From positions 389 to 64,388 of the forward strand of contig JAZKGW010000034.1 in NCBI GenBank assembly GCA_040385685.1: 64,000 bases of DNA. The letters are read 5' to 3'. Made by a program: the position numbers and the translations under genes. This stretch comes from Verrucomicrobiota bacterium. GTDB taxonomy: Bacteria; Verrucomicrobiota; Verrucomicrobiia; Verrucomicrobiales; Akkermansiaceae. The notes beneath the pieces are model-generated. The model saw only the letters and a program-made list of their open reading frames with translations. It was not told where the DNA came from and ran no database searches. Each line of letters starts with the position of its first letter. Within the stretch, counting starts at the first letter, position 1. This document shows positions 1 through 63,748 of this stretch, piece after piece.

Positions 1-1771
1 TAGACACGGCCACGGTTTTGGTTGCACCGATGTCGGGCGTTCCATACGCGACGAGGTGGATCATCTGTGCCGCGCCAAGGTCCACGGTCACGGTCTTGGG
101 AAATGTCGTGGACTCGTCGGTCGCATAACAACTCTGTGCCGAGTTGCCCCAGTTTCCGTCGGTTAGTCCACCGTCCCAGCCGTGGGTGTTCGGGTTGCTG
201 GATTGAAACGGCTTGTCGCCGGAGACCTTCCTGCCAAGCGTCGGATCAACCGGCCAGTGGGTGTTGAACGCGGCGGCCGGCAAGCCTTCGCGGTTCATCA
301 GATTCGGCTCGGCAAGCTGCGACCAGGCGAACCTCGCGCGGTCCGGCTTGGGGACCGCGGCGCTGGTTAGCAGGATCGACTTGCCATCGGCGGAGATCTT
401 CGCGTCGGCTGGCTGATAGTCCGCGTCTATACCCGCAATTTCGAACCAGTTTGGAGCTTTACCATCGCGGGTTGTTAGGCCGCCGCCGGTGTGATCGAAG
501 CCGATGGCGATGCCGGCGTCGGTGACCTTGTATTTTGAAAACAGCGGACCGGATTTCACGAGGTTGGACTTGCCAAAGGTATCGGCGAGTGCCCACAGCG
601 CCAGCCGCCGCCCGACTTCGCTTTTGTTCGTGGGGTGGATGTCCTTCACGTCGCCGATGTCGTTGGTCACAGCCATGCCGGTGTGGGGAATTTTCAAGAC
701 TTCCTGCTGGGCCCACCAGATGCCCGGGATGTTGTAGGTGGCACTTGCCCCGTAGTTGTAGGGGGCGAGCTGGACGAACAGAAAGGGCGCGTCGGCCGCG
801 CGGAATTGTTTGCGCCAGCCTGCGATCAGGGCTTTCATCTTTGCGGCGTAAAGCATGCCCTCGCCATTGTTAGACTCGCCCTGATACCACAGGAAGCCGC
901 GCAACGCGTAGGGGACCAGCGGGTGAATCATCGCCTGATAGGTGCCGGTCTCGGCACCGGATCCGAGCTTCAATAGCTCCGGCGCTTTCGGCATTTCCGG
1001 CGTGGGGAGTCCGGCATCGAAGGCCTTGGCCGCCGCGTCCGACCATTCGCGGACGCTGGAAACATACTTGCGGAAGTTCCGGTCATACTCGGGGAATCCC
1101 GGGCTTCTCGCCAACCGCTGGGTTCGCGTCGTGGCCAACTCGTCGATTCCGTCGAAACCTTCCTCCGCCCACCATGGCTCGATCCGCGACCCTCCCCACG
1201 AACTGTGGATGATGCCTACGGGCACTTTCAATTCTTCCGCCAGTTGTTTGCCGAAAAAATAACCGACCGCGGAAAAGTTCCTGGCGTTTTCCGGCGTTGC
1301 CGGCATCCACTTCGCGTTGACTGTTTCTTGCCGGACGTTGTTCAAGACGTGCGGCACGTCGAACGAGCGCATCAACGGCACCGGACCCGCTGCCGCGATT
1401 TCCAGGTCTTCCTTCCGCGTTTGGCCGACTCTCCACTCCATGTTCGATTGCCCGCTGCCGAGCCAGACCTCGCCCACCAGCAGGTCCTTCACTTCCAGCG
1501 GACTGCCACCTGCTTCAGTCACGATCATCGATCGGCTTTCGGCACTGGCGGGCATGGGAGGCAGCGAAACCTGCCAGCGGCCCGCGGCATCCGCAGTGGT
1601 GGTTTTCGTTTGTCCGCCGAAGGTGACGGTGACGGCTTTGCCGGCAGCGGCGCGGCCCCAGACGGGGACCGCTTTGTCTCGCTGGAGCACTCCGCCGTCC
1701 TGAAACGGGGGTGCCAATGTTACGTCCGCCACCACCGGTTGTGCTAAAAAGAGCAATGCCAACCACCGCAT
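1..1771 (-). CDS. Sialate O-acetylesterase (SASA/SGNH) family protein with C-terminal discoidin/F5-8-like extension; runs off the left edge and is absent from the ORF track
   Basis: Manual translation of the minus strand: signal peptide MRWLALLFLAQPVVA, then LVGEVWLGSGQSNME, SSWGGSRIEPW, LWYQGESN, DIHPTNKSEVGRRLA; no stop seen down to position 1. Alternative start at 1786. Confidence 0.88.
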   Translation of the reverse strand, partial: MRWLALLFLAQPVVADVTLAPPFQDGGVLQRDKAVPVWGRAAAGKAVTVTFGGQTKTTTADAAGRWQVSLPPMPASAESRSMIVTEAGGSPLEVKDLLVGEVWLGSGQSNMEWRVGQTRKEDLEIAAAGPVPLMRSFDVPHVLNNVRQETVNAKWMPATPENARNFSAVGYFFGKQLAEELKVPVGIIHSSWGGSRIEPWWAEEGFDGIDELATTRTQRLARSPGFPEYDRNFRKYVSSVREWSDAAAKAFDAGLPTPEMPKAPELLKLGSGAETGTYQAMIHPLVPYALRGFLWYQGESNNGEGMLYAAKMKALIAGWRKQFRAADAPFLFVQLAPYNYGASATYNIPGIWWAQQEVLKIPHTGMAVTNDIGDVKDIHPTNKSEVGRRLALWALADTFGKSNLVKSGPLFSKYKVTDAGIAIGFDHTGGGLTTRDGKAPNWFEIAGIDADYQPADAKISADGKSILLTSAAVPKPDRARFAWSQLAEPNLMNREGLPAAAFNTHWPVDPTLGRKVSGDKPFQSSNPNTHGWDGGLTDGNWGNSAQSCYATDESTTFPKTVTVDLGAAQMIHLVAYGTPDIGATKTVAVS

Positions 1772-1922
1772 TTTGAGTCTAATCATGGCCCGTTCCTACG
1801 CATTTGGCTGCCTGCGTCTAGCGATTCATTGCCAGAATCGCGAAAAAAATGGTTGCGTTTCGAGGTTGCAACAGGCACTTTTTCGCGGAAACCTCATAAA
1901 ACAAGGTAATTAACTAAGGATT

Positions 1923-3689
1923 ATGCTTCCAGAGCACGCCCCATTCACTTCCGACCAGCGCCAGGCGTTGGAATCGCTTCTCGCCGGCCTCGATCCCGTC
2001 CAACGCGGCTGGCTCAGCGGATTTCTTGCTGCTTCGGGAGTGCCCGCCGCTGTTGCCGCTCCGGCTCCGGCGGCTGCTGGAAAGCTGACCGTTCTCTACG
2101 GGACAGAGTCGGGAAATTCGGAAACGCTGGCGGACCGCACCGTGAAGGCTGCGAAAAAGCGCGGCTTCCAGGCGGTCATGAAAAATATGTCCGAGATTTC
2201 CCCGGCGGATCTGGCGAAGGCCACGAACCTGCTCGTGATCGTCTCGACATGGGGTGATGGAGATGCGCCCGAAACGGCTGTCCCCTTTTACAAGGAGTTC
2301 ATGAGTTCGGAAATCTCACTGTCGGGCGTCCGTTATTCGGTCTGCGCGCTGGGTGACACGGCTTACGAGCGATTCTGCCAGATTGGCAAGGACTTCGATG
2401 CTCGGTTGGAGGGTTTCGGTGCTTCCCGTGTTTTCGCCCGCCAGGATTGCGATGTGGACTATGAGGAATCCTATGCAGCTTGGTTAGAGAGTTCGCTTTC
2501 CGCGCTCGCTCCGGCTTCGGCTGCCCCGGTTGCGGTTGCTGGTCCAACAGCGGTCCCTGCCACCGAGTACGGGAAGAAGAATCCATTTCCCGCTGAAACG
2601 ATCGATACTGTCGTTCTGAATGGTGAAGGCTCGTCGAAGGAAACGCTGCACTTGGAATTCTCGCTCGCGGGATCCGGACTTTCCTACGAACCTGGCGACG
2701 CGCTCGCGGTGCTTCCGGTAAACGCGCCGGATGTCGTGAAGGCGATCATTCAAGCGGCCAAGCTCACCGGCAACGAGGAAGTCGAAGTCAAGAACGTCGG
2801 CCGCAAGTTGCTCGCCGACGCCCTGCGCGAGGACTACGACATCACCGCGCTTTCCCGTGCGGTTCTCACGAAACTTGCCGAAGCCCTCAACTCCGCCGTC
2901 TTGCGCGGGTTGCTGGCCGAAGGCGCGAAGGAGCAACTGAAGGAATACAGTGCCGGCCGCGAGATCATCGACGCGATTCTTGATTACGCTCCTAACGGAC
3001 TCTCCGCCGAGGCTCTGACGAGCATCTTCCGCAAGCTGCCGCCGCGGCTTTATTCGATCGCTTCCAGTCCGCTGGTGCACACCGATGAAGTTCATCTAAC
3101 CGTGGCCGCCGTCCGCTATGAAACCCACAATCGCGAACGCAAGGGCGTTTGCTCCACCTATCTCGCGGACCTGGTGAAATCGGGCGATCCCGTGCAGGTC
3201 TTCGTCCAGCCGAACAAGAACTTCCGCCTTCCCGCCGACAATTCCACACCGGTCATCATGGTGGGGCCCGGCACCGGCGTCGCGCCGTTCCGCGCTTTTG
3301 TCGAGCACCGCGCCGCCCTCGGTGGCAGTGGGAAAAACTGGCTGTTCTTCGGCGACCAGCATTACACCTACGACTTCCTCTATCAGCTCGAGTGGCAGGA
3401 CTTCCTCAAGGACGGCGCGCTCACCCGCCTCGACGTGGCATTCTCACGCGACCAACCGGAAAAAGTCTATGTTCAGGACCGGATGATCGCCCATGCCAAG
3501 GATCTCTATCAGTGGCTGGAGGAGGGCGCCCATTTCTACGTCTGTGGCGATGCCAACCGCATGGCCCACGATGTCCACGAAGCCCTGATCTCCGTCGTGG
3601 AAAACCAGGCGGCCATCTCCCGCGAAGCCGCCGAGGCCTACGTCGAGGATCTCAAGAAAGCCAAGCGCTATCAACGAGACGTTTACTAA
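1923..3689 (+). CDS. cysJ: Sulfite reductase (NADPH) flavoprotein alpha subunit
   Basis: Flavodoxin motif [14 protein letters not shown]-binding [21 protein letters not shown]-terminal RYQRDVY. Confidence 0.96.
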
Positions 3690-3715
3690 ATCTCTACTTT
3701 CAAATTTCCACCACC

Positions 3716-5437: not shown

Positions 5438-5461
5438 CGAAACTTTTCCCCACGCTCCACC

Positions 5462-6208: not shown

Positions 6209-6293
6209 AAGTGTTCCGCCTGTCTCAGCCGGAAGCAGAGCGTTAGAACCCCGCTAAGTTAGCCGGGTCACATTTCCCAAAACTCCCCACATT

Positions 6294-7256: not shown

Positions 7257-7263
7257 GGTGATA

Positions 7264-7338: not shown

Positions 7339-7415
7339 GGAGGGTTTGGGGAGCCCCCATTGAGACAATTTCCGAATGATGGACAGATCTTCCACCCGCT
7401 GTTATGGAGTGCGGT

Positions 7416-10898: not shown

Positions 10899-13800
10899 AT
10901 GAAAACTTTGGCCTGGATTTGCCTCGTCGCCGCGTTCGCGCATCTCAACCTCATGGCTCAAGACCCGGAAGCCCTCCGCGCGGAACGCGACCAGCTCACC
11001 GAGCGCGGCCTGTGGCGCGATGCGGTGAATTTCTACGAGGAAAGATTGTCGCCGATCTCGGATGCTGCATCCGGTTCCGATCTCTCCAAGGCCACTGAGG
11101 CTCTCGGCCGGCTGAACGCGTGGAAGGAATTTGACGGGCTCGTGGAGCGGGCGATTGCCGCGCATCCGGACAACGCGTCGCTGCTCACTTCGGCGGCGGA
11201 GGTCTATCGGCGCGCGCCGCATTCTGGCAGGATCATCGCCGGTGAGTTCGAGCGGGGCGGGGGAAATCGGTATGGCCGGGGACGCGTCGATGCCACCGAC
11301 GATTCGACCGCTTCCGCTGGCCAGGCGGTTGCCACCGGCTATCGGGATCACGTCCGTTCGCTCCAACTGTTGCGGGCTGCCGTGGTCAAGCAGGCGTCAG
11401 CCGCGGAGGGCATCCTCGCGTGGCGAGAAATGGCGGCGGTCTTCATGCAAAACGAAGCGTGGAAATTGCAAACGCTCACCCCGTTAGATGCACTGCCCGA
11501 ATGGGGCGAACCGGGTCCGGAAGGCGGCACGGAGGGTGCGCCGTGGAATGCTGATAGACCGGTGTTGTATGAGGTTCCCGCCTCGTGGGAAGCCGCTGCC
11601 AACGACGGCCAGCGCTGGCGTTTCGCTCTTGCAGAGCAGGCCCGCCTGAGCTCCGAAGCCGACATGGCTGCGGTGATGATTTCCGAGCGGGCAAATTTTT
11701 CCCGTTCTCAATTCGGCACGGAAACCCTCTCGGCTTACGGCTGGTGGCGGCAGCAGGATCCGGATAGCGCGAAGGGGATTCTCGAAATGGACACACTCAC
11801 CGAGGACGAGTGTCTGGCGAAAACATCCGATGGCGTGCGCCGTTTCACACTTCCCGCGGAGCATCATTTCATCGCGCTGTATCGTTCGATCCTTGACAAC
11901 AAGCTCGTGGGTGCCACCGCCGGCGACGCACTTGTCGATATCTTCCTCAACCGCCGCCAATACGACAAGGCCCGCGAGGTGCTCGAATCAACCATCGCGA
12001 AACACGGACCGGGAACCAACGACTCACGAAAAAAACTCCTCAGGCAAATCACGGGTAACTGGGGCCGCTTCGAGACTGCGGAAACGGTGCCCGCCGGCGT
12101 GAAGCCCAAGCTCCCGCTGGTGTTCCGCAACGCGCCGAAGATTGCTCTAACCGCCTCACCGGTGGACATGGACGCCGTCTTGAACGACACTCTAGCCTAT
12201 CTGAAGAGCAACCCGCGCGAACTCGATTGGCGCCGTCTCAATCCCTCGCAGATCGCGAGCCGCCTGATCGCGGGCGACGCCGCGAAATACATCGGCAAAC
12301 CCACGGCTAATTGGAACGTGGATCTCACCCCTCGCGACAAGCATCGCGACACCCGCGCCGATCTTGAAGTGCCGCTCGACCAAGCCGGTGCGTGGTGGAT
12401 CAGCGGCGACGTCGAAGGTGGCTATTCCTTCCACACGCTGATCTGGATTGTCGATTCCGTGCTCGTCCAAAACGACGTGGGCGGCAGGAAGCAATGGTGG
12501 GTCGCCGATGCCGCCAGCGGGGCACCGGTCGCTGGCTCCGCGATCCAATTTTTCGGCTACCGCGCGGTGAGTCTTGAGCGGAAAAATCCGCTGGAACGAA
12601 ACATCGAAATTCGCACTCAGGAGTTCGGCCGCACCACCGATGCCGATGGCAAGACCTTGCTGAAGCCCGGTGATTGGGATGAAAACTATCAGTGGCTGGC
12701 GATCGCCCGCAAGGAGGGCCGTGCGGCCGCGTTCTTCGGGTTCCGGCCCTATGGCATCGAAATGCCGCAACTCGAAAACGGCAACCGCGACCTCACCTAC
12801 GGCATCTCGGACCGCCCGCTTTATAAACCCGGCGACACGGCGCATCTGAAATTCTATCTGCGCAATGTCGGCTACTTCGCACCGGACGAGAACAAGTGGG
12901 CTAACAAATCCGGCACGCTCGTCCTCACCAATGGCCGCGGCGAGGAAGTCATGAAAATCGAAAAGCTCCGGACCGACGCGCTCGGCGCTGTCGAAAGCGA
13001 AGTTGTCATTCCCAAGGACGCGGTGCTTGGAATGTGGAACGCGACATTTCGAATCGGCGACCAGATCGCCGCGACAGTTAGCCTGAGCGTCGAAGAATAC
13101 CGCAAGCCGGAGTATGAGGTGAAGGTCGAGGCTCCCGACGCGCCGGTGAAGCTCGGCCACAAATTCACAGCCACTGTCAAAGCCACCTATTTTCATGGCT
13201 CGCCGGTTAGAAATGCCAGCGTCGAGATCATCGTCAAGCGCGGCTCGATCGGCGAGCGGTGGTTTCCTGTCTGGCGCTGGGACTGGCTTTATGGACCGGG
13301 CGCGTGGTGGAACGGCAGCGAGGCGAGTTGGCATCCCGGATGGAAAGACTGGGGCTGCATCCCGCCCCATCCGCCATGGTGGCAGGGCAACCGCTGGACA
13401 CCCGATGAACTCGTGATGAAGCGCAATGTCCCGATCGGTCCCGACGGCACCGCGAAGATCGAGATCGACACCGCGTCCGCGAAGGCAGTCCACGGCGACA
13501 TGGATGCGAAATACACCATCGAGGCCCGCGTCGTCGATGCCTCGCGCCGTGAAGAACGTGGCACCGGATCCGTCATCGCCGCCCGCAAGCCGTTCGAGGT
13601 CATCGTTTGGACGAATCGCGGCTTTGCCCGCGCCGGCGAGCAAGTGGAGGCGACCGTTTCCGCCGCGACGCTTGCCGGGAAACCGGTGGTGGGAGCGAAA
13701 GGCAAGCTCACGATTTTCAAACTAACTGGCGGTGAGGGCGGGCGCATCGAGGAGAAGGAAGTTCAATCATTTGCGGTCGAGACGGATCCCCAAGGCGAGA

Positions 13801-50800: not shown

Positions 50801-53800
50801 GCCACGGCGCTGAACGCCGGCACGACCGTCGTTAATGGTTCGCTCGCCGCCGGCAGCGCTGTCACCGTCGCCAACGGCGCGGCGATTTCCGGGATGGGAA
50901 CCGTCAACGGCGCCCTCGGCTTCACCAATGGTTCGCGTCTGCTTTGGACTTTGCCTGCTAACAGCGAGGCGGTCGGAGTGGGGAGCAAACTCAACACCGG
51001 CACCGTCACCGTGGCCAACGGCGCATTGGTTGACTTCACCTTCAATGGTCCCGGCAGCACCACCGATTTTTCCCAGCCGTTCTGGTCGCAGCCGCACTCG
51101 TGGACCGTTCTAACCAGCAGTGGAATGGCGGGAACATTCGCGCTCGGTGCCATCAGCGTCGATCCGGGCGGCCGTCCCCTCGGCAACTATGGCAAGTTCA
51201 CGATCCAGCAAGGCGCGGGCGGCGTCACCTTGTTGTATTCGCCGCTCGGCGCGGAGCTTCCTCCGATTCCAACGGGCTTCGCGGCATCGGCCTCGCCGGG
51301 CAAAGTGGTGCTCACCTGGTCCACAGCCTCCGGAGCCGCGACCTACAATGTGAAACGCGCCACCAGCCCCGGCGGCCCGTATGTGACCATCGCCACGGGT
51401 GTCACCAGCACTTCCTTCATCGACAACTCGATGGTCAACGGCACGGTCTATTACTACGTGGTCTCCTCAGTGAATCCGAACGGCGAGAGCTCTGCATCGT
51501 CGGAAAGCGTGGCGACGCCGCACCTGCCGTCCATCTTTAACAAGGCGGACAACACGATCGCTCTCAATCTATCCGGCAGTTGGACCGGTGGGATCATTCC
51601 TAACGCCCTCGATACGGCGCGGTGGACGGGATTGTCCGGGGCCAACTCCGTTTCACTCGGTACGGACATGAGCGTGACCGGCATCATCATCGCTTCCACC
51701 GGCGGCGCTGTTAGCATCGGCGCGGGCAACACGCTCACGCTTGGAACTGGAGGCTTGGATTTGAGCGCGGCCACGGAGAACCTGACGATTTCCTCCAGCC
51801 TGATCCTCGGTGCGGGAAATCAGCCGTGGAATGTTGCTTCAGGTCGGACCCTGACCTTGGACACCGGCACATTTACCCGCAGCACAGGCGCGACCGTCAC
51901 GCGTCCTAACACAGGAACCGTGACGACGAACATGGTGGGCATCGTCAATGACAGCACCGGAATTCTTGGAGGTTGGGCGACGATCCCCGGTGTGGGCACC
52001 GGCGATTGGGTGACCCTCACAGGCGGAAACATGACGACCTACGCGGGTTACACGCCGATTGCCGCGGCGACCGCCGCGGATGCCAACCAGAACTGGCTGA
52101 GCACTGTCAACGCCGCCGGCATCACCGCCTCGGGAACCTTGAACTCCCTGAAGATGACCGCCGATTTCAACATTCCCAACGGAGCGACTCTCACCCTCGC
52201 CAGCGGCGGACTGCTGATGTCCGGCCCGCAAAAATGGTTGCTGAACAATGGCGTGGGGACCACGGCGGGAACAGGCATGCTGACGTCCGGGTTGACCACC
52301 GGCGAACTGTTCGTGCACGTCGCCAAGTCCGATGCCACGAACTGGTCGATCTGGTCCACCATCGTCAACAATGGTGCCACGGCGGTGACACTCGTGAAGA
52401 ACGGCCCCGGCCTCGTCTATGTGAGAAACGCAAACACCTTCACCGGCGGGACGCATCTTAACGGCGGAACGATCCTGGCGGCGAATGCGACCGCGCTGGG
52501 CACCGGCACGCTCAACATGAACGGTGGCAACTTCGGCACCACCGCCGCGCTCACCATCGCCAACGCGATCACTGTGGCGGGAACCAACACCATCGGCCAC
52601 GCGGCTCAGGCAGCTAACAGCATCACGCTTTCCGGAGCCCTGACAGGCAACGGCACGCTGAAGAACTTTGTGGGTGCCGGCGGAGGATCGAGCAGCGTCT
52701 TCTTCACCGGCAGCCTGAGCGGCTTCACCGGCACCATCGACTACACGGATGATGGGGGTGCCAACGCCCAGTGGTGGCGTGCCGGAGCCAACGGCTCCAC
52801 CGTCGATCTATCCAACGCGTCCGTGATACTGCGGGTGGGCAATGTTTCCAATACCGTCGCCAGCAAGAACTTCGGATTTGCCGACAACATCAGCGGAGCC
52901 ACCTTGAAAATCGGCGCGCTTTCAGGCGACGGTGTCCTTCAGTCATCGTTCAACAACGCGGGTCCTAACACTCTCGAAGTCGGAGCCCTGGACACCAGCA
53001 CCACCTTTTCCGGCGTGTTGTCCGGAGCCGCTGCGGGAACCAACATGGCCTTCACCAAGGTCGGCGCCGGCACGTTGACGCTCAGCGGCACGAACACTTA
53101 CAGCGGTGCGACGGCTGTGAATGCGGGAACCCTTGTGGTCATCGGCAACCACGCGGGTGCCACGGGAGCCCTGACCGTAGCCGCCAACGCCACGCTGGGC
53201 GGAAATGGCAACCTGGGTGGCAATGTCACCATCAATGCCAGCGGCATCCATTCGCTCGCCGTGGCGGCCACGCCCGGTGCACAAGTAACGCGAGCCATCA
53301 CCGGCACGCTGACTAACATTTCTGGAAATATCCTGAATCTAGCCGCCTCCTCCGCTCCCGCGGTTGGTGTCTATACTTTGGTGACGGCCACCGGCGGCAT
53401 TTCCGCCCTTCCCACGACGATCACCGGATTTACTGGAGGCGTGGTGTCCATTTCCGGCAATAGCCTGATTCTAACTGTATCCGACTCCGCTTACAATTCG
53501 TGGGCATCCTCCAAGGGCCTGACAGGCGCTAACAATGGCATAATTCTGGATCCCGATTTCGATAACGTGTCCAATGTTCTTGAATTTGTTCTCAGCGGCA
53601 ACCCGCTTGCCAGCGACCCGCTGATCCTGCCCGATCCGGCGGTTACAGCCACCGATTTCACCTTCACTTTCAGCCGTGCGGATCAATCCAAAACCGAAGT
53701 CGGTCTGACCTTCCAATACGGTTCCGATCTCACCGGCTGGACCAACGTCGCTATCGGCACCGAAAGTGCCGGAGCGGTATCGATCACTCCAAATGGCACC

Positions 53801-53884
53801 GCGCCCGATACGGTGGTCGTCACGATTCCGAAGAACAGCGTCCCTGGCGGCAAGCTATTCGGCCGCCTCAGGGCGGTGAAGTGA
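47882..53884 (+). CDS. 2000-aa secreted metzincin (M12B/reprolysin-like) + LamG + autotransporter-associated beta-strand repeats + FN3 + C-terminal domain
   Basis: Signal peptide; IDVALSYS, AHELGHNQGCDH, TIMMH Met-turn; ARILEFN; KAGAGTLILAGTNTYTG repeats; YYYVVSSVN. Confidence 0.88.
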   Translation: MNLPTRSLWGAIAAFSLVLVSITPVCRAAEIDVALSYSPDAATRHGGEDNIQVNLANALAGTNATHDRSGTSARFRIAGYYQSIANPIDQDNTAVVIALSNDAAYQDVRNHADSVGADFISYYAHTTGAAGNAGQPGRYSTMGEQWIYYAVVAHELGHNQGCDHRDGNVNPKTIMMHNYCGGGAQGFFSNPNIWLNGTRLQGSTSCIGDAVANGDNAYVISSTSQGNADIANRPGNGPKLTNVTRRWRFDAPAGSAPNGTTVNDSVSGANPATVLGTGATYTGKALRLPGGTGASGAAYLELPSGLVSPYTDVTVEVWATPLSARNWARILEFNDNSANNYVMLTSSIGNDLNAQRFESKVGGATVTLGSGIPTVAGVPHLYTISFKNNGAGGGRWQWYRDGDAIAFLDVAYTLATAPNLKSWLGRSIFGGDDLAHCDYAEVRVSNVAMNQHEILANYKLGPNWTSSNVPLTADDALGQSSFATAGGWSDALAPSAGKSYETFNYRLRTPADGVSRTFGGNSLKLSGGSLTYKGTASSTTTINNLTTTGGCELVQAGSGTWTLAGSLAPASDLTAVRAANGPINLTANLSGSGPLLYLNNTVTLGGTNTSFTGRTLVGDGRLSSVFIDSEARLGANPATFTADQFTFNRGVLYTTSNQTIDDSNRGIRINESAGIFNVAGGTTLTIAVPLSSPSSGANLQTAPLFPNPAVGMLIKENTGTLNISHPNNSHSGEIVVNGGTLALTGAGRINNGDTAMSMVINATLLMDTTANQNFSGAFSGGGSFIKNNSGTTTLVGANNLFTGAVTINGGTLYANAANAANNRALSGTSGVIVNSGATLRTSANALFGWDGTQDRPITVNAGGTLVANGGGTGDVGVGTVTLAGGTLTSFAASTAYGTFRFDNATDRLLVTQDSTASATNVKFGNAAASIDVASGKTLNFTGTITNATSGGTSYLTKAGAGTLILAGTNTYTGATALNAGTTVVNGSLAAGSAVTVANGAAISGMGTVNGALGFTNGSRLLWTLPANSEAVGVGSKLNTGTVTVANGALVDFTFNGPGSTTDFSQPFWSQPHSWTVLTSSGMAGTFALGAISVDPGGRPLGNYGKFTIQQGAGGVTLLYSPLGAELPPIPTGFAASASPGKVVLTWSTASGAATYNVKRATSPGGPYVTIATGVTSTSFIDNSMVNGTVYYYVVSSVNPNGESSASSESVATPHLPSIFNKADNTIALNLSGSWTGGIIPNALDTARWTGLSGANSVSLGTDMSVTGIIIASTGGAVSIGAGNTLTLGTGGLDLSAATENLTISSSLILGAGNQPWNVASGRTLTLDTGTFTRSTGATVTRPNTGTVTTNMVGIVNDSTGILGGWATIPGVGTGDWVTLTGGNMTTYAGYTPIAAATAADANQNWLSTVNAAGITASGTLNSLKMTADFNIPNGATLTLASGGLLMSGPQKWLLNNGVGTTAGTGMLTSGLTTGELFVHVAKSDATNWSIWSTIVNNGATAVTLVKNGPGLVYVRNANTFTGGTHLNGGTILAANATALGTGTLNMNGGNFGTTAALTIANAITVAGTNTIGHAAQAANSITLSGALTGNGTLKNFVGAGGGSSSVFFTGSLSGFTGTIDYTDDGGANAQWWRAGANGSTVDLSNASVILRVGNVSNTVASKNFGFADNISGATLKIGALSGDGVLQSSFNNAGPNTLEVGALDTSTTFSGVLSGAAAGTNMAFTKVGAGTLTLSGTNTYSGATAVNAGTLVVIGNHAGATGALTVAANATLGGNGNLGGNVTINASGIHSLAVAATPGAQVTRAITGTLTNISGNILNLAASSAPAVGVYTLVTATGGISALPTTITGFTGGVVSISGNSLILTVSDSAYNSWASSKGLTGANNGIILDPDFDNVSNVLEFVLSGNPLASDPLILPDPAVTATDFTFTFSRADQSKTEVGLTFQYGSDLTGWTNVAIGTESAGAVSITPNGTAPDTVVVTIPKNSVPGGKLFGRLRAVK

Positions 53885-53961
53885 CCCGGCAACTGTCCGA
53901 ACTCAGGAAACTCTAACCCATTGCGGACAGGGATCATCTGGACGATCCTCACCGAAACCCC

Positions 53962-56900
53962 ATGAATCCCGCCCGACGCCATTCGGCATTCTCTCTAACG
54001 CTTGCATCCGTTGCTGCCGCGATGACCGCGCTCGCCGGCTTTGTTTCCGCCCAGACACTGGCCCTCAATGGCGACATCCAGCGGTCGGTTTCCCTGACGA
54101 ACACCACTGTCACCATGACGGGGCGGTCGGAACTTCACTTGTCCGCCACCGTCAATCCGATGCCGGGCTGCACGATTCATCTCAATTCCCCCGACGCGTG
54201 GTTTTTCATGACTTCCATCCGGCCGTCGGTCGTGAACTCGACCTACCTCGGGCAACTTCGCGTCAACGGTGTGGCCGCGGTGCAGGGGACCAATGTGCGG
54301 ATCGTGCAATATGGGCTGGGTGCCGTGGTCATCCCGCAGCCGCCATCGTTCCAGCCGTTCGAGGGGTTTGCCGGCCGGAACTTCTCCGGGACCTCGAAGT
54401 CGTTCGGCCTCTACACTTATTACGACAGCGCCGCCGACCTCGGTGCGATGCATCGGAATCTCAGTTCCTTCAGATTGAAGCGCGGCTACATGGCCACGGT
54501 TTCGATCCAAGCCAGCGGCAACGGTGTGGCCCAAAATTATGTCGCGCAGGACGGCGACCTCGAAGTCCCGGTGCTGCCGGCGAATCTCGATAACGCGATC
54601 CAGTACATCCGCGTTTTTCCTTGGCGCTGGACTTCGAAGAAGGGCACCTGCGACACCAATCCAAACGATTTCGCCGCGTCTTGGAATTACAATTGGAACA
54701 ACGATGGCGATGTCCAGCAATCGACGCTCGACGTCGAGTTTGTCCCAATCAAACAGCAACGCTGGTGGCCCGCATTTCCCACTAACAAGCCGGAATCCAT
54801 CCATCTTCTTGGCTACAACGAGCCCGACAATCCGGTCGAGGATGCCTACGAGTCACTCGACAATGGCAACGTCGATACCGCGATCGCCGTGTGGGATGGT
54901 CTCGAATGGTGCGGCCTGCGTCTCGGCTCTCCGGCCGTGACGGATGGCGGCAAGGCCTGGCTTTACGATTTCATGAACAAGACCGTCGCCGCCAACCGGC
55001 GCGTCGATTTCATCGCCATCCACAATTACCAATGCGGCAACTCGGCGACCTCGCTGCACAACTGGCTGAAGGACGTTTACGACCGTTACGGCAAGCCGAT
55101 CTGGCTCACCGAGTTTAACAACGGCGCGAACTGGACCGGTTGTGGGGATCCCACGTTTGAGCAAAACGCCACCGCCATCTCCAGCTTCATCGACCGGATG
55201 GACAATACGCCCTGGATCGAACGCTACTCCATTTACAGCAACGTCGAGGAAGTAAGGCAGTTGTGGTACAACGGCGGCGGCCGCACTCCGACCGGAGCCG
55301 TCTATCAGGCGAACGCTTCTCCGATTGGCTACGTCCAGGCGATGCCGGAGTCGGAGATGACATCACGGGCGATCTATCCGTTCGATGGCACGGCGGCGGA
55401 TAATTCGGGCAGCGGACAACCGCTGATGGTAGTCGGTACGCCGTCGTTCCCTACGGGAAAAAATGGGCAGGCGCTTTCCTTGGACGGTGCCAATGATTAC
55501 CTGCAGCTTTCATCGCGGATCGGCGACAGCACGGATTTCACCTTCGCCGGCTGGGTGAAGTGGAACGGTGGCGCCGACTGGCAGCGGATCTTCGACTTCG
55601 GCAACTACAACTTGCGATCGATGTTTATCACCCCGGCGGTCGCAGGGAAACTGAGGTTCAACATTTTCAACGAAACCACGGAGCAAATCCTTGAGGTTGC
55701 CGGCACCCTGCCCGTCGGGGTGTGGACCCATGTCGGCGTCACGATCGCCGGCAACACCGGCAAGCTGTTCGTCAACGGATTACCGGTGGCCACGAACGCT
55801 GCCATGACGCTCAATCCCGTGGACCTCGGGACAAAGCATAATTTCCTCGGAAAAAGCCAGTTCCCTGCGGACCCGACGTTCAACGGGCAGCTCGACGACA
55901 TCATGATCCTTCCCTACGCGCTCACCGACGCGCAGGTGGCCCTCGTGCCTAACAATCGTTTGCCGCAATTTTCCAGCAGTGAAATCGTCATTGCGGACGC
56001 GCTGAGGAACCAGCCGTTCGCCGCGTCGTTCGCAAGCACGGCGACCGACGCTGACGCGCAGGCCCTCATCTTTTCGAAGGTAAGTGGTCCCGCGTGGCTC
56101 GCCGTAGCCGCCAACGGCACGCTCACCGGCGTGCCGACCTCCCAGGCCGACCTCGGCGAAAATACCTGCTTCGTGACCGTGACCGACACCCTGGGTGGCT
56201 CAGCCAGCGCGATGTTGAAAATTCGCGTGGTGGATCCGCCGGGATTCACCTCCCGTTACACTTTCAACAGCACCACCAACGCCGCCGTCGGAACGAGTCA
56301 TGGAGTCGCCACGGGCGCGCCAACCTACGTAGGTTCGCCGGCACCCCGATCCGCCGCGATCGTCCTCGATGGCGTTGACGATTTCGTCACCCTGCCTGCC
56401 GGTGTTGCCAATCATGATGAAATCACCATCGCCACCTGGGTCTGGTGGAATGGCGGGAACATCTGGCAGCGCATCTTCGACTTCGGAAACAGCACGGCCG
56501 ACAATATGTTCCTCACGCCGCGATCAGGCGCCAATACCCTGAGGTTTGCGGTTGCGACCGGTGGGATCGAGCGAATCCTCGAGACAACGCAGCTTGGTGC
56601 GGGTGGCTGGCATCACGTCGCCGTCACGCTCGGCGGAGGCACAGGCAAGCTCTACCTCAACGGCCTGCTGAAGGATACCGAGGCGATCACTTTCAAACCC
56701 AGCGACATGCGCCCGGCGGTCAACTATCTTGGCAAAAGCCAATGGCCGGACCCGTTGTTCGCGGGCCAGCTCGATGAGTTTGTGATACTCAACAGGGCGT
56801 TGGACGCCAACGGGATCGCGGCGCTCTACACCGCCACCAATCTGCCCTTGTTCGTCACCGACCCTTTCAGCAAGCCGGCCACCACCGTCGGGGCCGACTA

Positions 56901-58125
56901 TGGGACAACGATCAGCGCGACCGGCAGCAATCTAACCTATTCGAAGGCTGGCGGGCCGCGCTGGCTCAGCGTCGCACCTAACGGTACGGCCTCGGGCATA
57001 CCCAGCCATGCCGATGCCGGAACCAACTATTTCACCGTTCGCGCCACAAACTCGAACGGCTATTCGGACGACGCGACGATGACCGTCACGGTGGCGCCGC
57101 CGTCGGACCTGCATGCCCACTATCAGTTTCACAACGCCGTCACCGATTCTGACAACGGCTTCAACGGGGCCGTCACTGGAGCTCCCGCATACACACCCGG
57201 CATCTTCGACCAAGCCGTTGACCTGGATGCGACCGATGACTTCGTGACATTGCCTGCTGCCGCCGTGAACTCGCTGGGCGATGTCACCATCGCGACCCGT
57301 TTCCGCTGGGACGGTGGCAATGCCTGGCAGAGGATTTTTGATTTTGGCAAAGACAACACCGCCTATCTGTTTTTCAGTCCGAGCTACGGGGCCAACCTCC
57401 GCTTCGGGATCAAGAACGGCGGTGCCGAGCAGGTGATCAACGCTCCTGCCGCTCCGATCGGCGAGTGGACCCACGCCGCGGTCACCTTGATTGGAAATAC
57501 CGGCACGATTTACATCAATGGCGCTGCCGTCGCCACCGGACCCATCACCATCGACCCCGTGAACATCGCGCCAACGCTGAACTATCTGGGTAAAAGCCAA
57601 TATGCCGCCGACCCGCTCTTCAACGGTGCCATCGACGATTTGCGGATCTTCAATCGCGGATTGACCGCCTCTGAAGTCGCCGCGCTCGTGGCTCCCCGAT
57701 CGGCCTACGACACATGGACGACCGTAAATCCCTTCCCGGCGGGGCAGGGTTTACCGGGACTTGATCCGGACCGCGACCAGCTCGCCAACATGTTCGAGTT
57801 TCTCCTTGGCTCCGATCCGCTGGTTCCTTCCCTCAACGTTCTGCCACAGGCGCAAACGCGGACCGCCGCCGAAATCGGCCTGCCCGGCAACAAGCTCTAT
57901 CTCACTCTAACCGCCCGCCTGCGGGTCAACCGCGAGGGCCACACGGTCACGGCCGAAGCCGCCGCCTCTCCCGCCGGCCTGGCACTCCCGGCCGCCGCAA
58001 CCCACGCAATTCTAGCAGGGCTCCCGGTGGACGACGGTGCCTTCGAGATTGTCACCTGGTACTACGACGTCGCGATCGAAGATGGCGGTGTCGGTTTCAT
58101 GCGCCTGCGAGGAAAGCAGGAGTAA
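53962..58125 (+). CDS. Secreted GH128-like glycoside hydrolase + three LamG domains + Ig/cadherin-like repeats + C-terminal domain
   Basis: HLLGYNEPD, LGSPA, DFIAIHNY, PIWLTEFN, IERYS; three WQRIFDFG; FSKVSGPAWLAV. Confidence 0.85.
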   Translation: MNPARRHSAFSLTLASVAAAMTALAGFVSAQTLALNGDIQRSVSLTNTTVTMTGRSELHLSATVNPMPGCTIHLNSPDAWFFMTSIRPSVVNSTYLGQLRVNGVAAVQGTNVRIVQYGLGAVVIPQPPSFQPFEGFAGRNFSGTSKSFGLYTYYDSAADLGAMHRNLSSFRLKRGYMATVSIQASGNGVAQNYVAQDGDLEVPVLPANLDNAIQYIRVFPWRWTSKKGTCDTNPNDFAASWNYNWNNDGDVQQSTLDVEFVPIKQQRWWPAFPTNKPESIHLLGYNEPDNPVEDAYESLDNGNVDTAIAVWDGLEWCGLRLGSPAVTDGGKAWLYDFMNKTVAANRRVDFIAIHNYQCGNSATSLHNWLKDVYDRYGKPIWLTEFNNGANWTGCGDPTFEQNATAISSFIDRMDNTPWIERYSIYSNVEEVRQLWYNGGGRTPTGAVYQANASPIGYVQAMPESEMTSRAIYPFDGTAADNSGSGQPLMVVGTPSFPTGKNGQALSLDGANDYLQLSSRIGDSTDFTFAGWVKWNGGADWQRIFDFGNYNLRSMFITPAVAGKLRFNIFNETTEQILEVAGTLPVGVWTHVGVTIAGNTGKLFVNGLPVATNAAMTLNPVDLGTKHNFLGKSQFPADPTFNGQLDDIMILPYALTDAQVALVPNNRLPQFSSSEIVIADALRNQPFAASFASTATDADAQALIFSKVSGPAWLAVAANGTLTGVPTSQADLGENTCFVTVTDTLGGSASAMLKIRVVDPPGFTSRYTFNSTTNAAVGTSHGVATGAPTYVGSPAPRSAAIVLDGVDDFVTLPAGVANHDEITIATWVWWNGGNIWQRIFDFGNSTADNMFLTPRSGANTLRFAVATGGIERILETTQLGAGGWHHVAVTLGGGTGKLYLNGLLKDTEAITFKPSDMRPAVNYLGKSQWPDPLFAGQLDEFVILNRALDANGIAALYTATNLPLFVTDPFSKPATTVGADYGTTISATGSNLTYSKAGGPRWLSVAPNGTASGIPSHADAGTNYFTVRATNSNGYSDDATMTVTVAPPSDLHAHYQFHNAVTDSDNGFNGAVTGAPAYTPGIFDQAVDLDATDDFVTLPAAAVNSLGDVTIATRFRWDGGNAWQRIFDFGKDNTAYLFFSPSYGANLRFGIKNGGAEQVINAPAAPIGEWTHAAVTLIGNTGTIYINGAAVATGPITIDPVNIAPTLNYLGKSQYAADPLFNGAIDDLRIFNRGLTASEVAALVAPRSAYDTWTTVNPFPAGQGLPGLDPDRDQLANMFEFLLGSDPLVPSLNVLPQAQTRTAAEIGLPGNKLYLTLTARLRVNREGHTVTAEAAASPAGLALPAAATHAILAGLPVDDGAFEIVTWYYDVAIEDGGVGFMRLRGKQE

Positions 58126-58162
58126 ATCGGTGAATGCTAACAACCTGCAACCGGGAGTAGGT

Positions 58163-59542
58163 TCAGCCTTCCAGACACGCCGTCCCAAACAATGTGAAGC
58201 CGGTGGACTGCTCGATCTGGATGTCGAGGAGTTGGCCTGTTAACCGGGCCGGGTCGCCGTCGAAGATGACGATCTTGTTGTGCGGCGTGCGGCCTGTTAG
58301 CCGGGCGGAGTTGTTTTTCGACGGGCCTTCGCAAAGGACCTGCTGGCGGGTGCCCACGACAGCGGCGTTGCTGGCGATGGCGAGGCGGTCGACCACGGCG
58401 AGCAGTCGCTGGTTGCGCTCTTCCTTCACGGATTCGTCGAGCTGGCCGTCCATTTCGGCGGCGGGCGTGTTGCGGCGTTTCGAGTAACGGAAGACGAAGG
58501 CGTTGTCGAATTTGAGGCGTTCAACGGTGTCGATGGTCGCCTGGAAATCCTCCTCAGTCTCACCGGGGAAGCCGACAATCATGTCGGTGGTGATTGCGAG
58601 TCCGGGCCGGGCGGCTTTCATTTTCTCGCAGATCTCGATGAACTTCTCGTTCTTATAAGGTCGGCGCATCACCTTGAGAATCCTATCAGAACCGCTCTGC
58701 ATCGGGAAATGGATGTGCGGGCAGAGTTTCGGCAGATAGGTGAACGCGGCGACGAGATCGTCGCGGTAGCCGATCGGATGCGGCGAGGTGAAACGGATGC
58801 GCTCGATGCCTTCGACTTTGTGCACGGCTTCGAGAAGCTGGACGAACGGCGACTTGCCATCGATTTTCGGAAACTCGGTGCGGCCGTAAAGATTGACGAT
58901 CTGCCCTAACAAGGTGATTTCCTTCACCCCGTGCGCGGCGAGGTGGCGGACTTCGCCAACAATTTCCGCAATCGGCCGTCCGCGTTCCTTGCCGCGGGTG
59001 TCGGGGACGATGCAGAACGAGCAGCGCATGTTGCAGCCCTGCATGATCGAAACGAAGGACGACGCCTCATGCGCCTTTGGAATATGGTCGCGGATGGTGT
59101 TTTGCGAACCCTCTTCCTCGGCGGTGTCGCAAACGCTGGTGCCGCGCAGCGAGTAGGCCGGATCATCCATCCGAGCTTCTAACCGCCGCTGGAGGATGCC
59201 GTCCACGTATTCGAAAACCTTGTGGTATTTCTGGGTGCCGACGACTACATCGAGCTTCGGCAGGGTCTGGAAAAGTTCCTCGCCGCGCGATTGGGCCATG
59301 CAGCCCATGAAGCCATAAACGACATGTTTGCGGTCGCGTCCCTTGTGGATCAGGTTGCCCATTTTTCCCAAGGCCTTCTGCTCCGCCTGGTCTCTAACGG
59401 AGCAGGTGTTGATGAGTACGGCGTCCGCCTCGTTTTCATCCGCCGTCACCGTGTAGCCGCCCTCGCTGAACATCCGCACGACTTGCTCGGAGTCGCGCTC
59501 ATTCATCTGGCAACCGTAGGTTTTGACGTAGACTTTTGGCAT
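58163..59542 (-). CDS. miaB: tRNA-2-methylthio-N6-dimethylallyladenosine synthase
   Basis: KTYGCQMNERDSE, NTCSVR, GCNMRCSFC, DMIVGFPGET, TRAM domain. Confidence 0.96.
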   Translation of the reverse strand: MPKVYVKTYGCQMNERDSEQVVRMFSEGGYTVTADENEADAVLINTCSVRDQAEQKALGKMGNLIHKGRDRKHVVYGFMGCMAQSRGEELFQTLPKLDVVVGTQKYHKVFEYVDGILQRRLEARMDDPAYSLRGTSVCDTAEEEGSQNTIRDHIPKAHEASSFVSIMQGCNMRCSFCIVPDTRGKERGRPIAEIVGEVRHLAAHGVKEITLLGQIVNLYGRTEFPKIDGKSPFVQLLEAVHKVEGIERIRFTSPHPIGYRDDLVAAFTYLPKLCPHIHFPMQSGSDRILKVMRRPYKNEKFIEICEKMKAARPGLAITTDMIVGFPGETEEDFQATIDTVERLKFDNAFVFRYSKRRNTPAAEMDGQLDESVKEERNQRLLAVVDRLAIASNAAVVGTRQQVLCEGPSKNNSARLTGRTPHNKIVIFDGDPARLTGQLLDIQIEQSTGFTLFGTACLEG

Positions 59543-59678
59543 GGAGTTTCCGGGTCGGGCGCGCAAGCTAGACAGGGAAGTTCACCGGTTCAAGGCCACA
59601 GGAGCAGTGTTTTGGCATGCCTCAGTCAAAACGGACCTTGGCAACGCGGATCGGGAAAGCAACGTTCTCGGTTGCGCA

Positions 59679-61253: not shown

Positions 61254-61268
61254 GATGGCAACAAAGCC

Positions 61269-61769
61269 TTACGCGAGAACCAACCTCTCGTCGGACTCGA
61301 GCTTGGCGGTGAGCACTGGCCAGCCGCCGGGAACCTGCATGTTGAAGCAGTGCAGATAGAGAGTGAGCAGCTTCGGATCGAAGATGTCGACCAAGCGATC
61401 GATTGTCGAGTTGAGGCGCTCGGCATCGAGATTTTTCGGCAAGTCGCCGACGACCGAGCCTTTGCCATCGTGAGGGATGCCCATGCCGTCGCAGAACATC
61501 GCCAGCAACGACTGCTGGCCAGCCATCAGGTAGGCTTGCAGGAGGTGCTCGCCGATGGTTTCACAGGGCTTGAGCTTGAGGGTTTTGTGGATCCAAGCGT
61601 ATTGCTCGGCCATCGATTTCTTTTCAACGAACACCGGCCGGAGCTTGCGGTTTCCGGCTAGGGTGGCGACGGCGGACCGGTAAACGTTCCGGTCGTTGGC
61701 GCGGAACCAATCGAGGATTTGAGTGACAACGGCGGGATCGACTGCGGAGTAAAGTTCGTGGGCTTTCAC
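61269..61769 (-). CDS. Conserved hypothetical protein
   Basis: Intact 166-aa ORF with typical codon use, GTG start. Confidence 0.7.
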   Translation of the reverse strand: MKAHELYSAVDPAVVTQILDWFRANDRNVYRSAVATLAGNRKLRPVFVEKKSMAEQYAWIHKTLKLKPCETIGEHLLQAYLMAGQQSLLAMFCDGMGIPHDGKGSVVGDLPKNLDAERLNSTIDRLVDIFDPKLLTLYLHCFNMQVPGGWPVLTAKLESDERLVLA

Positions 61770-61958
61770 GGTGAGGAAATAAGAAGTGGCAGGGAGTCAA
61801 TGCGCTCATCCGCCCCGTGGCAAGGGCGGAGACGCGAAAAGGTGGAGCACGGCTTTTTCGAGAAGTAATGCGATTTCCATGGGTGACCTGCCGGAAAATC
61901 TGTGGGCATCAATCGCGGTCTTTCAGATGCCGGCGTGACCTCAATAGGACCACCCGAC

Positions 61959-62336
61959 TTACAGGAACGCCATGATCCCGAAAACGAGCATCACTCCCCC
62001 GGAAACCACCAACCCGGCCCCGAAGACCAGTAACCGGCCTTTGCCCAACGAATCTCCATTGCGAAAAAGCCCCCGCAGATACAACTCCGCCAACGGCCCG
62101 AGCATGAACGCGACGTTGGCCCCGATGCCGACCAGGATGCCACCGATGATCGCGGCGGGAATGGGAAGGTTCTGTCGGGTGATCCACAGCATCAGCACGC
62201 CGATGCCGGGCGGAAGCAGGATTCCGTTATAAATGAGGCGGAGCTTTTCCCAACCGCGGACCAGTTCGCCGAGCGTGGCGTGATCGCTGGCAACGGGCGG
62301 CGCGGACGGCGGCGCGTAGGGATTTGGTTCGATCAT
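61959..62336 (-). CDS. Hypothetical membrane protein (NPYAPP N-terminus)
   Basis: NPYAPPS, WEKLRLIYN, four hydrophobic segments; starts 5 nt after upstream stop. Confidence 0.7.
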   Translation of the reverse strand: MIEPNPYAPPSAPPVASDHATLGELVRGWEKLRLIYNGILLPPGIGVLMLWITRQNLPIPAAIIGGILVGIGANVAFMLGPLAELYLRGLFRNGDSLGKGRLLVFGAGLVVSGGVMLVFGIMAFL

Positions 62337-62341
62337 ACCCT

Positions 62342-63748
62342 TCAGCGAAGTCCGAGCACTTTCGGCGCGCTGGCATTTCCGAACCGATCGATCGCCGTGA
62401 CCGCGATCGCCTCGGCACGGGGGAAGGAAATCGTTTGCGTGCTGGTGGGCAGGATTTTCACCGTGCGCCAGGTGCCGCCCGTTTTGGCTTGGACGGCGAT
62501 TTTCGCGGCGCTGCCATCGGCTGACCAGCGGACCAACGTGTTGCCACCATCGGCCGTCGCGCTGGCTCCGGGCGAGGCGGGTGCGTTGCTGTTGAGCCAC
62601 GGCATCGGCGGGATCGCGGCGGGCTGGGTGTAAGTGCCGGCGAGCTTGGTGGCGATGCCGCCCTGGTTTCTAACAAGGCTCTTCGCGCTCCAATGGATGT
62701 GACCGTTCCAGTTGTTTCCAGTCTTGCGGGAAATGTCGATCTGGCTGGTGATTTCGCCCGCACCGCGGCCATCCGATCCGCCGATCCGCTCGGTGGCGAT
62801 TCCCGGCCACACTGGCCGCGATCCTTGCTGACGCCACCAGTTGAGCAGCGTGGTGTAGCTCTGCTTCTGTGGCGAAATCCGCCAGTAGAGCTGCGGTGCG
62901 AGGTAATCGACCCAACCGTTTTTCAGCCATTTGCGCGAATCGCCGGCGAGTTGCTCATAGCTGTCGATGCCAGCCTCGATGCCGCCGGGCACGCCCGGAC
63001 GCCAGATGCCGAACGGACTGATGCCGACCCGCACCCACGACTTCTGGCGCTTCACGGCGGCGTAGAGGTTGCTGACGAATCCATCGACATAAGCCCGTCG
63101 CTCGGCGGGGCTTTTTCCATCGGGGAAACGCAGGCTGCCGGACGGATAGGGATAGAAATAGTCGTCGAGGTGGACGCCATCGACGTCGTAGCGCTTCACC
63201 ACATCGAGGATGACATTGAGCGCGCGGGAGCGGGTGTTTTCGTTGGCGGGATCGCACCAGGTCATGGTGCCGAATTTTTTCGTGATCTGCGGCGCGCTGC
63301 GGGTGACATGGTTGGCGGCGACCTGCTGGGAGTTGCTGGAAAGAGCGCGGAACGGATTGAACCACGCGTGCACCTCGATCCCGCGTGCATGGGCCTGCTG
63401 GATGCAATAGGCGAGGGGATCGTAGCCCGGCGAGCGGCCCATCGTGCCGGTTAGGCTGGAGCTCCAGGGCTCGATGGCCGACGCATAGACCGCGTCGCAC
63501 TGCGGGCGGACCTGGAAGACCACTGCGTTCATTTTCAACGCGGCGAGCTTGTCGAGGATGCCGCGCATTTCGGCCTGCTGGGTGCTTGCGTCGAGGCCGG
63601 ATGAGCTGGGCCAGTCGAGGTTGTAGATACAGGCGATCCACGCCCCTCGAAATTCGCGGGCGAGCGCGGGCGGTGGATCGTTCACTGGCGCGTAATTCTG
63701 GGCGGCGGCGATACCGATGGAAAAGAGGAAGGCGATCAAGCGAAGCAT
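62342..63748 (-). CDS. GHL10 (YddW/DUF187-like) glycoside hydrolase
   Basis: REFRGAWI, VFQVRP, YDPL, EVHAWFNPFR, YDVDGVHLDDYFYPY, DYLAPQLYW. Confidence 0.9.
   Translation of the reverse strand: MLRLIAFLFSIGIAAAQNYAPVNDPPPALAREFRGAWIACIYNLDWPSSSGLDASTQQAEMRGILDKLAALKMNAVVFQVRPQCDAVYASAIEPWSSSLTGTMGRSPGYDPLAYCIQQAHARGIEVHAWFNPFRALSSNSQQVAANHVTRSAPQITKKFGTMTWCDPANENTRSRALNVILDVVKRYDVDGVHLDDYFYPYPSGSLRFPDGKSPAERRAYVDGFVSNLYAAVKRQKSWVRVGISPFGIWRPGVPGGIEAGIDSYEQLAGDSRKWLKNGWVDYLAPQLYWRISPQKQSYTTLLNWWRQQGSRPVWPGIATERIGGSDGRGAGEITSQIDISRKTGNNWNGHIHWSAKSLVRNQGGIATKLAGTYTQPAAIPPMPWLNSNAPASPGASATADGGNTLVRWSADGSAAKIAVQAKTGGTWRTVKILPTSTQTISFPRAEAIAVTAIDRFGNASAPKVLGLR

Follow-up and report, generated by a model that had tools for sequence, protein, structure and literature searches.

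A CTAAC-core word dispersed through genomes of one genus of Verrucomicrobiota and its possible role as a tag of self-DNA

Chi sites are words of 5–8 nt; the one for AddAB in Bacillus subtilis is AGCGG. Neisseriaceae have DNA uptake sequences (DUS), for which the minor pilin ComP is the reader, and Pasteurellaceae have uptake signal sequences (USS); both kinds have thousands of copies, about 1 per kb, in both orientations. They are found in genes, in the frames which are tolerated, and in spacers; their spacing is more even than random, they are absent from recently acquired DNA and they have clade dialects. These features are described, in part, in PMC2817400, PMC2397512 and PMC3868556. Another case is that of HIP1 (GCGATCGC) and the alternate highly iterated palindromes (HIP) of cyanobacteria (Elhai 2015, PMC4390886). 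Here we describe a dispersed word in the phylum Verrucomicrobiota, CTAAC with its complement GTTAG, which is found throughout a window of 64,000 nt. The window is the whole stretch of DNA analysed, contig C34:389-64388 of a genome of 6.76 Mb, 65 contigs and 60% GC, which we call G000.

The word resembles DUS and USS in copy number, in the use of both orientations, in its dispersion, in its presence in genes and spacers, in its restriction to a clade with dialects and in its absence from imported DNA. It is also similar to HIP1: both are dispersed and written against codon preference, their abundance varies among relatives and orphan methyltransferases are present. The differences are that CTAAC/GTTAG is asymmetric, whereas HIP1 is palindromic, and that no methyltransferase tracks the trait. 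In the searchable literature we have found no description of a CTAAC word for this phylum, which supports the original prediction, made from the letters of the window, of an apparently undescribed motif system.

The word in the window and in the whole genome

The sites form a single field in the window:

162..63454, both strands: CTAAC/GTTAG field, about 1 site per 516 bp, in genes and spacers; first site 162-166, last site 63450-63454

It contains 124 sites, 71 on the forward strand (read as CTAAC) and 53 on the reverse strand (read as GTTAG); the earlier count of about 120 was close to this value. Shuffles of the window which preserve dinucleotides give 32.7 ± 4.9 sites, and 124 was reached in none of 100. 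The mononucleotide expectation is about 89 sites, so that the caution expressed in the prediction about a naive null, with some 80 expected, was fair. Sibling words are much scarcer: CTAAG/CTTAG 11, CTAAA/TTTAG 10 and CTAAT/ATTAG 4. The first two counts had been given correctly, the third one as 3. The other NTAAC classes have 28 (ATAAC), 30 (GTAAC) and 14 (TTAAC) sites.

The whole genome has 10,933 sites, with 1.3–2.3 per kb on nearly all large contigs. Two comparisons had been proposed with the prediction, one with an order-3 Markov model and one with a shuffle of codons, and both of them are in its favour. CTAAC ranks first among all 5-mers of the genome against the Markov model, with an observed/expected ratio (O/E) of 1.81 and z of about 70–99. 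The codon null was a per-gene shuffle preserving the amino acids, applied to crude gene calls (3,932 open reading frames, ORFs; 5.07 Mb). Genes contain 4,952 CTAAC for 1,434 expected (3.45x, z 88) and 2,901 GTTAG for 927 expected (3.13x, z 71). These ratios are the highest among all 5-mers and are alike on both coding orientations.

The word is written with codons which are otherwise rare, as had been claimed. Leu is coded by CTA in 28.2% of cases before ACN and in 2.9% elsewhere; TTA is used for 6.8% of Leu between G and G and for 1.2% elsewhere. Pro is CCT in 36% of cases before AAC, with 8.9% elsewhere and 4.1% before AAT. Asn is AAC in 95.7% of cases after NCT, with 68.5% elsewhere. Synonymous codon choice in G000 is bent up to ten-fold where CTAAC can be written. 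A motif which extends over the chromosome, is written by synonymous codons in both orientations and enters housekeeping genes is thus well supported.

Sites are not limited to coding frames. C-TAA-C is found in 286 of the 906 TAA stops of G000, and short intergenic gaps have 441 sites in 192 kb (Markov O/E 1.65). As enrichment is present in both coding orientations, in intergenic DNA and in stop contexts, the effect must take place on double-stranded DNA and not on translation. For these reasons we have rejected causes at the level of translation, such as codon pairs or hidden stops; the siblings CTAA(A/G/T) are not enriched. The density of these siblings is about 0.53 per kb in G000, within the range of 0.15–0.8 per kb in non-enriched congeners: their apparent depletion is ordinary TA avoidance, and only CTAAC is unusual.

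Other 5-mers of the G000 coding sequences also deviate from the codon shuffle. Those containing GTAC are depleted about 5-fold (GGTAC 0.23, GTACC 0.19, CGTAC 0.19, GTACG 0.20), a pattern expected if GTAC is, or once was, a target of restriction. The ratio is 0.51 for CCTGG, which is thus depleted, 2.5x for TTTCC and 1.6x for GGAAA.

Several genes of the window illustrate how the word is distributed:

1923..3689, forward strand: cysJ-like flavoprotein gene, sites at 2483, 2992 and 3096
10899..17039, forward strand: gene for 2046 aa, 7 sense and 8 antisense sites
47882..58125, forward strand: two giant secreted-protein genes, PATR/reprolysin-like (2000 aa) and Laminin_G_3/GH (glycosyl hydrolase, 1387 aa)
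58163..59566, reverse strand: miaB (Radical_SAM/UPF0004/TRAM), a housekeeping example used as phylogenetic anchor, sites at 58296, 58906, 59179 and 59394

In contrast to the balanced 2046-aa gene, the two giant genes have 23 sense sites and a single antisense one. Their local orientation bias runs along the coding strand and is likely due to an Asn/Thr-rich composition.

Form, spacing and origin of the word

The enrichment of CTAAC is real, but the prediction described a bare pentamer, and in this respect it does not stand. The true signal is a graded word of about 8 bp, with Y-CTAAC-A-R as its best form (Y-CTAAC-(A-N or N-R)). Compared with the shuffle, position −1 prefers a pyrimidine (T 9.9x and C 3.2x in sense sites, C 6.1x and T 3.9x in antisense sites). 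Position +1 prefers A (6.7–7.9x, other bases 1.6–2.9x) and position +2 a purine (4–5x, otherwise about 1.8x). These flank preferences are alike on both coding orientations. The best 8-mers, CCTAACAA, TCTAACCG and GCTAACAG, are at 14x over the shuffle; examples of sequences which bear the word are TCTAACAG and CCTAACAA. When CTAAC is followed by C, G or T and then by C or T it is at or below expectation (GCTAACGC 0.2x), and the telomere-like context CCCTAACCC is depleted. The TAAC-N-G and TAACAR forms presumably resemble sites of Myb-type helix-turn-helix proteins. A longer hidden motif or a repeat element was considered and rejected: there is no information beyond positions −2 to +3 and there are no arrays, the maximum being 8 sites per kb.

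Spacing had been described as random, which is nearly right. However there is a slight short-range repulsion: distances of 50 bp or less are 4.5% of the spacings, with 7.8% expected, and the dispersion index at 250–500 bp is 0.93–0.95, with 1.0–1.08 for control words. At the other end the distribution in G000 has a tail of long motif-free gaps.

Sense sites exceed antisense ones by 1.7:1, as the codon shuffle also predicts, and strand skew follows gene orientation. A test of replichore polarity had also been proposed. Beyond gene orientation we find a regional orientation bias of only about ±5% (by GC skew, residual skew of third-position GC, GC3, and block over-dispersion), a value obtained in a fragmented assembly with weak GC3 skew. 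There is no polarity of the type of Chi or of the FtsK-orienting polar sequences (KOPS); the latter and other architecture-imparting sequences differ from the word by strand switches at origin and terminus and a high skew, neither of which is seen here. The sense strands of G000 are C-rich at third positions, with a mean GC3 skew of −0.17. Bulk GC skew therefore runs opposite to gene orientation (r = −0.49) and is no straightforward guide to replichores.

The origin of the sites is apparent from alignments of orthologues, another check that was suggested at the start: synonymous changes do create the word, through several types of substitution. The aligned positions in relatives read CTCAC, CTGAC, CCAAC, CTAGC, CGAAC and others. 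At each position of the word where a synonymous change is possible the shift is toward CTAAC, and transversions take part in it. Since there are several source words and all synonymous positions are shifted, the process is a fixation bias for the whole word and not a single path of mutation or mismatch repair. Single mutational paths, such as deamination of CCAAC, CTGAC or CTAGC, are rejected: several paths are used and the sources are not depleted (CCAAC 1.06, CTCAC 0.99). We are confident that a fixation bias (selection or drive) exists which acts on the whole word, at the level of double-stranded DNA, and is restricted to a lineage.

At conserved Leu-Thr dipeptides G000 and its congener G014 share 27 sites for 15.5 expected (odds ratio 6.6). 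Much of this sharing can be due to residual ancestry (identity at 4-fold sites is 0.44) and to a common flank context. What we claim is maintenance of density, not positional conservation or selection on specific sites.

A neutral bias of mutation or repair, dependent on context and with neither reader nor function, is in our opinion very unlikely. It would agree with a trait which is graded among congeners, as described below, and with the fact that only synonymous and non-coding positions are affected. However, an 8-bp context in which several types of substitution converge on one word corresponds to no known mutational signature. Furthermore, the short-range repulsion suggests diminishing returns, which would mean selection or drive.

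Distribution of the word and candidate genes

The sequence of MiaB places G000 in Verrucomicrobiales, near Luteolibacter. Most of the 80 loci which we have compared across the phylum have no enrichment: the pooled Markov O/E is 1.01 in Akkermansia, 1.05 in Opitutales and 1.12 in other Verrucomicrobiales. For whole genomes we have used the count of CTAACA divided by that of its reversed control, with the following results:

G018: 2.63
G014: 2.12
G017: 2.02
G000: 1.98
G001, G003, G004 and G009: 1.0–1.3
other congeners: 0.27–0.9, with G002, G007 and G008 among the low ones
other families of the order: mostly 0.05–0.25, with G029 at 0.41 and G028 at 0.70

Among 400 sampled genomes of the phylum the highest value is that of G000, and no other one is above 1.0. 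The same gradation is found in conserved Leu-Thr dipeptides, which are written with the word in 39% of cases in G000, in 34% and 25% of cases in G014 and G018, and in no more than 2–6% in G015 and G008. In these two non-enriched congeners no alternative dialect word stands out. The CTAAC trait is shared by independent assemblies, confined to one genus and graded within it. The 18 genomes of congeneric species have sizes of 2.3–5.7 Mb, below that of G000. A metagenome-assembled genome (MAG) with a MiaB 92% identical (L001) has 49% GC in the same neighbourhood, compared with 60% in G000.

Enrichment of the same word in independent congeneric assemblies excludes an artefact. An error of assembly or sequencing, or a deliberate synonymous recoding of one sequence, which the prediction had left open, is refuted: G014, G017, G018 and G001 were assembled independently and their enrichment is graded. 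Several such assemblies and MAGs are enriched in the word, whether or not its positions are orthologous, and the encoded amino acids match those of the orthologues. We have found nothing in favour of this explanation and give it practically no weight.

We then ask which genes might determine the trait. None of the profiles of C5 methylase, Vsr, RecC, ComEC, N6/N4 (SPPY) methylase and integron integrase tracks it. The C5 methylase is represented in G000 by a fragment of 61 positions (C22:193313-193498) and it is absent from G001, G009 and G012. Vsr has an orphan copy in G000 (C15:36121-36342); it is not found in G001, G014, G017 and G018, whose enrichment is strong, and many genomes of weak enrichment have it. 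These gene profiles and the several substitution classes do not support the suggestion of a methyltransferase with biased repair in its 5-methylcytosine/Vsr form. We have accordingly rejected a signature of very-short-patch repair of Vsr/Dcm type, which requires a C5 methylase together with Vsr and changes T:G to C:G only.

Another candidate is an orphan beta-class methyltransferase of 277 aa (G000:C6:93624-94457, equivalent to L161:325-1158, reverse strand). It has an SPPY motif IV and a DPFLGIGTS motif I; its closest solved structures, which are CcrM-type and N4-cytosine enzymes, only reach E 1e-15. A scan for methyltransferases by regular expressions did not detect this enzyme; its only hits were two Type I HsdM-like genes. 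The enzyme is conserved throughout the genus and also in Chthoniobacterales. It is present alike in enriched genomes, in non-enriched ones and in those with a 9-mer word discussed below, with an invariant central region and identities to the G000 protein of 84% in G014, 52% in G002 and 58% in G031. This methyltransferase cannot set the dialect.

Nevertheless a maintenance linked to methylation has to be considered. In the model of Elhai for HIP1 a methyltransferase would mark the word or its core and methyl-dependent mismatch repair would convert near-cognates. Relatives of the SPPY class such as M.MboIIA read short asymmetric sites, the orphan SPPY enzyme is conserved, and G000 also has the orphan Vsr. 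Cyanobacterial HIP words co-occur with cognate methyltransferases (PMC4390886). On the other hand, the SPPY enzyme is also found in the non-enriched G002, G008 and G080 and in G031 and G331, which have another word. G000 and G001 lack a complete C5 methylase, and four strongly enriched genomes have no Vsr, as said above. Transversions at several positions are among the substitutions which lead to the word, and these are not one mismatch class; the graded flanks are unlike the sharp sites of methyltransferases. This model appears quite unlikely to us.

A cis-acting binding site would be another explanation, either for a nucleoid or chromosome-structuring protein or as a Chi-like attenuator of an AddAB-type helicase-nuclease, which would protect resident DNA. 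The graded flanks, similar to a position weight matrix, resemble protein-DNA affinity. As in the case of Chi, a short asymmetric word is over-represented in resident DNA and not in an imported island of the window, with a density comparable to that of the 5-nt Chi of Bacillus subtilis. G000 also encodes a divergent helicase-nuclease of the RecB/AddA family (C12:112754-115816), which is below the NCBIfam cut-offs. However, Chi and KOPS are strongly skewed, whereas the replication-strand polarity of our word is no more than about ±5%. A profile search finds no RecC in the whole genus, and no AddB adjoins the AddA-like gene of G000. The Chthoniobacterales with the 9-mer word do have RecC, so that the two CTAAC-core words occur with different recombination machineries. 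Finally, the strength of the trait differs about 10-fold between congeners; a core function of the chromosome would not usually vary so much. On balance we find such a site unlikely.

Imported DNA, a second word and the uptake reading

Only five sites are found in the window between 41.6 and 48.4 kb. This region has the following features:

43900..47000, forward strand: motif-poor, AT-richer island with four small same-strand ORFs, GC 0.54 and 0.61–0.65 in its flanks
44547..44556, both strands: back-to-back CTAAC and GTTAG at a junction of cassettes, similar to an attC core
45188-45192 and 45263-45267: further copies at cassette junctions

The four ORFs have no convincing Pfam hits. Four of the five copies of the word in the 41.6–48.4 kb stretch lie at junctions between ORFs (44547, 44552, 45188 and 45263). 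The island fits an array of integron-like cassettes. There is no integron integrase in the window; that of G000 lies at C44:670-1578, on a different contig. Elsewhere in the genome, the longest stretches free of the motif contain a Baseplate_J phage-tail-like protein, giant PAS/GAF hybrid kinases, a PATR autotransporter and ORFans, which is suggestive of accessory DNA, although not conclusive. The Baseplate_J-like protein has 1023 aa (G000:C21:55875-58946, L170:4875-7946) and is found within a motif-free stretch of 9.8 kb, possibly a prophage or a contractile injection system. The fixation bias acts in resident coding and non-coding DNA, and not in the imported cassette island.

In the first CTAAC screen of loci of the phylum two loci of Chthoniobacterales stood out. 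About 80% of their CTAAC copies are in one sharp context, GCCTAACGA. A sample of 221 kb of G031 has 181 copies of this 9-mer, 92 forward and 89 reverse, with 2 of the reversed control (about 90x). Nothing is conserved outside its 9 bp, short spacings are depleted, and the copies occupy all four stop-free combinations of frame and orientation as well as non-coding DNA. A clade of 25 Chthoniobacterales genomes (G031, G032 and G431-G453) has 1,000–4,300 copies in each genome, 12–56x the reversed control; whole-genome counts are 2,700 and 89 in G031, 4,336 and 78 in G443. The next 16 relatives (G454-G469) have at most 19 copies each. In the phylum sample it is carried only by G331 (1,803 and 70 for the control), and G000 has no enrichment of it (83 and 123). 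Judged by its sequence features GCCTAACGA is DUS/USS-like in every respect, much closer to the sharpness of the classical words than the word of G000.

The few copies of GCCTAACGA in the non-carrier G457 are the 5' ends of attC sites in cassette arrays. One of them is an integron array of seven cassettes with a spacing of 410–690 bp (G457:C7:93500-97500, L173; also L174), in which the attC sites have about 105 nt and a textbook form, starting with GCCTAACGAG and ending with GGTTAGGC. The Y-CTAAC of G000 likewise conforms to YYYAAC, the universal inverse core of attC. One may thus ask whether a tyrosine recombinase of the integron-integrase type reads both words, as instances of the universal core (RYYYAAC / GTTRRRY). 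Both Y-CTAAC and GCCTAAC match the inverse core exactly, and true attC sites of the window and of G457 contain them. In the cassette arrays of G457 each attC has GCCTAACGA itself as its 5' end and finishes with GGTTAGGC, and the cassette junctions of the window carry CTAAC/GTTAG. Integron integrases are common in these lineages, G000 included. We see very little chance for this explanation. The integrase (TIGR02249) does not track the trait: G002, G015, G010 and G016 have it with weak enrichment, and G443, the richest in the 9-mer, has none above the cut-off. A recombinase makes no point substitutions. Given that we had screened for CTAAC, the evidence gained from the match with the attC core is only about 1/16. 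Furthermore, the word has about 11,000 dispersed single copies in genes, with neither the attC hairpin nor conserved flanks. An attC site is an imperfect inverted repeat (R''-L''...L'-R') which bounds cassettes and is recombined by the integrase IntI. We have rejected the dispersed copies as attC sites; only a handful at cassette junctions qualify.

The reading which we tentatively prefer, although its probability is below one half, is that of a self word specific to the lineage, with CTAAC as its core, which would be a tag of self-DNA similar to uptake sequences. Substitutions which complete the word would be preferentially retained wherever protein coding allows it, and its density would be kept high. 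Such a bias could arise because a protein reads the word. As in DUS and USS, cells might preferentially take up and recombine conspecific DNA bearing it; word-bearing alleles would then spread by molecular drive, one word per fragment being enough. This reading is supported by the bias at the level of double-stranded DNA, the density of about 1.6 sites per kb, the near-equal strands, the absence of arrays, the short-range repulsion and the restriction to a clade.

Several observations weigh against an uptake role. ComEC does not explain who has the word: besides G000, 30 of 31 other genomes also encode it, with or without the trait, and the exception, G017, is only 70% complete. A literature search gave no paper on natural competence in Verrucomicrobia. 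The word is shorter than DUS and USS and it is graded. Its 11–12 bits, approximately, give only 4–16-fold discrimination against relatives, far below that of the 9–12-mers of DUS and USS, and its enrichment is 3–14x, not hundreds-fold. Motif-capable dipeptides are found only in G000 in 408 cases and only in the relative in 377 (p=0.28): the pressure for CTAAC has no detectable effect on proteins, whereas USS does alter them. In G000 there is no excess of inverted site pairs at short distance, in contrast with the terminator-type pairs of DUS. The CTAAC core in common with GCCTAACGA is weak evidence for a shared machinery, because the 9-mer was found by screening for CTAAC.

A broader idea is that Verrucomicrobiota carry lineage-specific self-DNA words read by a common machinery, the soft Y-CTAAC-A-R and the sharp GCCTAACGA being dialects in two orders. 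It is a possibility, although we consider it doubtful. If true, it would be the first sequence-specific system of DNA uptake or self-recognition outside Proteobacteria. We know of no competence, Chi or watermark system in this phylum. The coincidence with the attC core might mean that the exchange of cassettes is connected with this recognition. As the trait is graded within one genus and the 9-mer is cleanly on or off (25 carriers and 16 non-carriers), the protein which reads the word should be findable by comparison of gene contents. In these genomes the CTAAC word is also a practical marker of resident and imported DNA. It is rare for a word to saturate a genome, and all the known examples (DUS, USS, Chi and HIP1) have exposed a part of the machinery which handles DNA.

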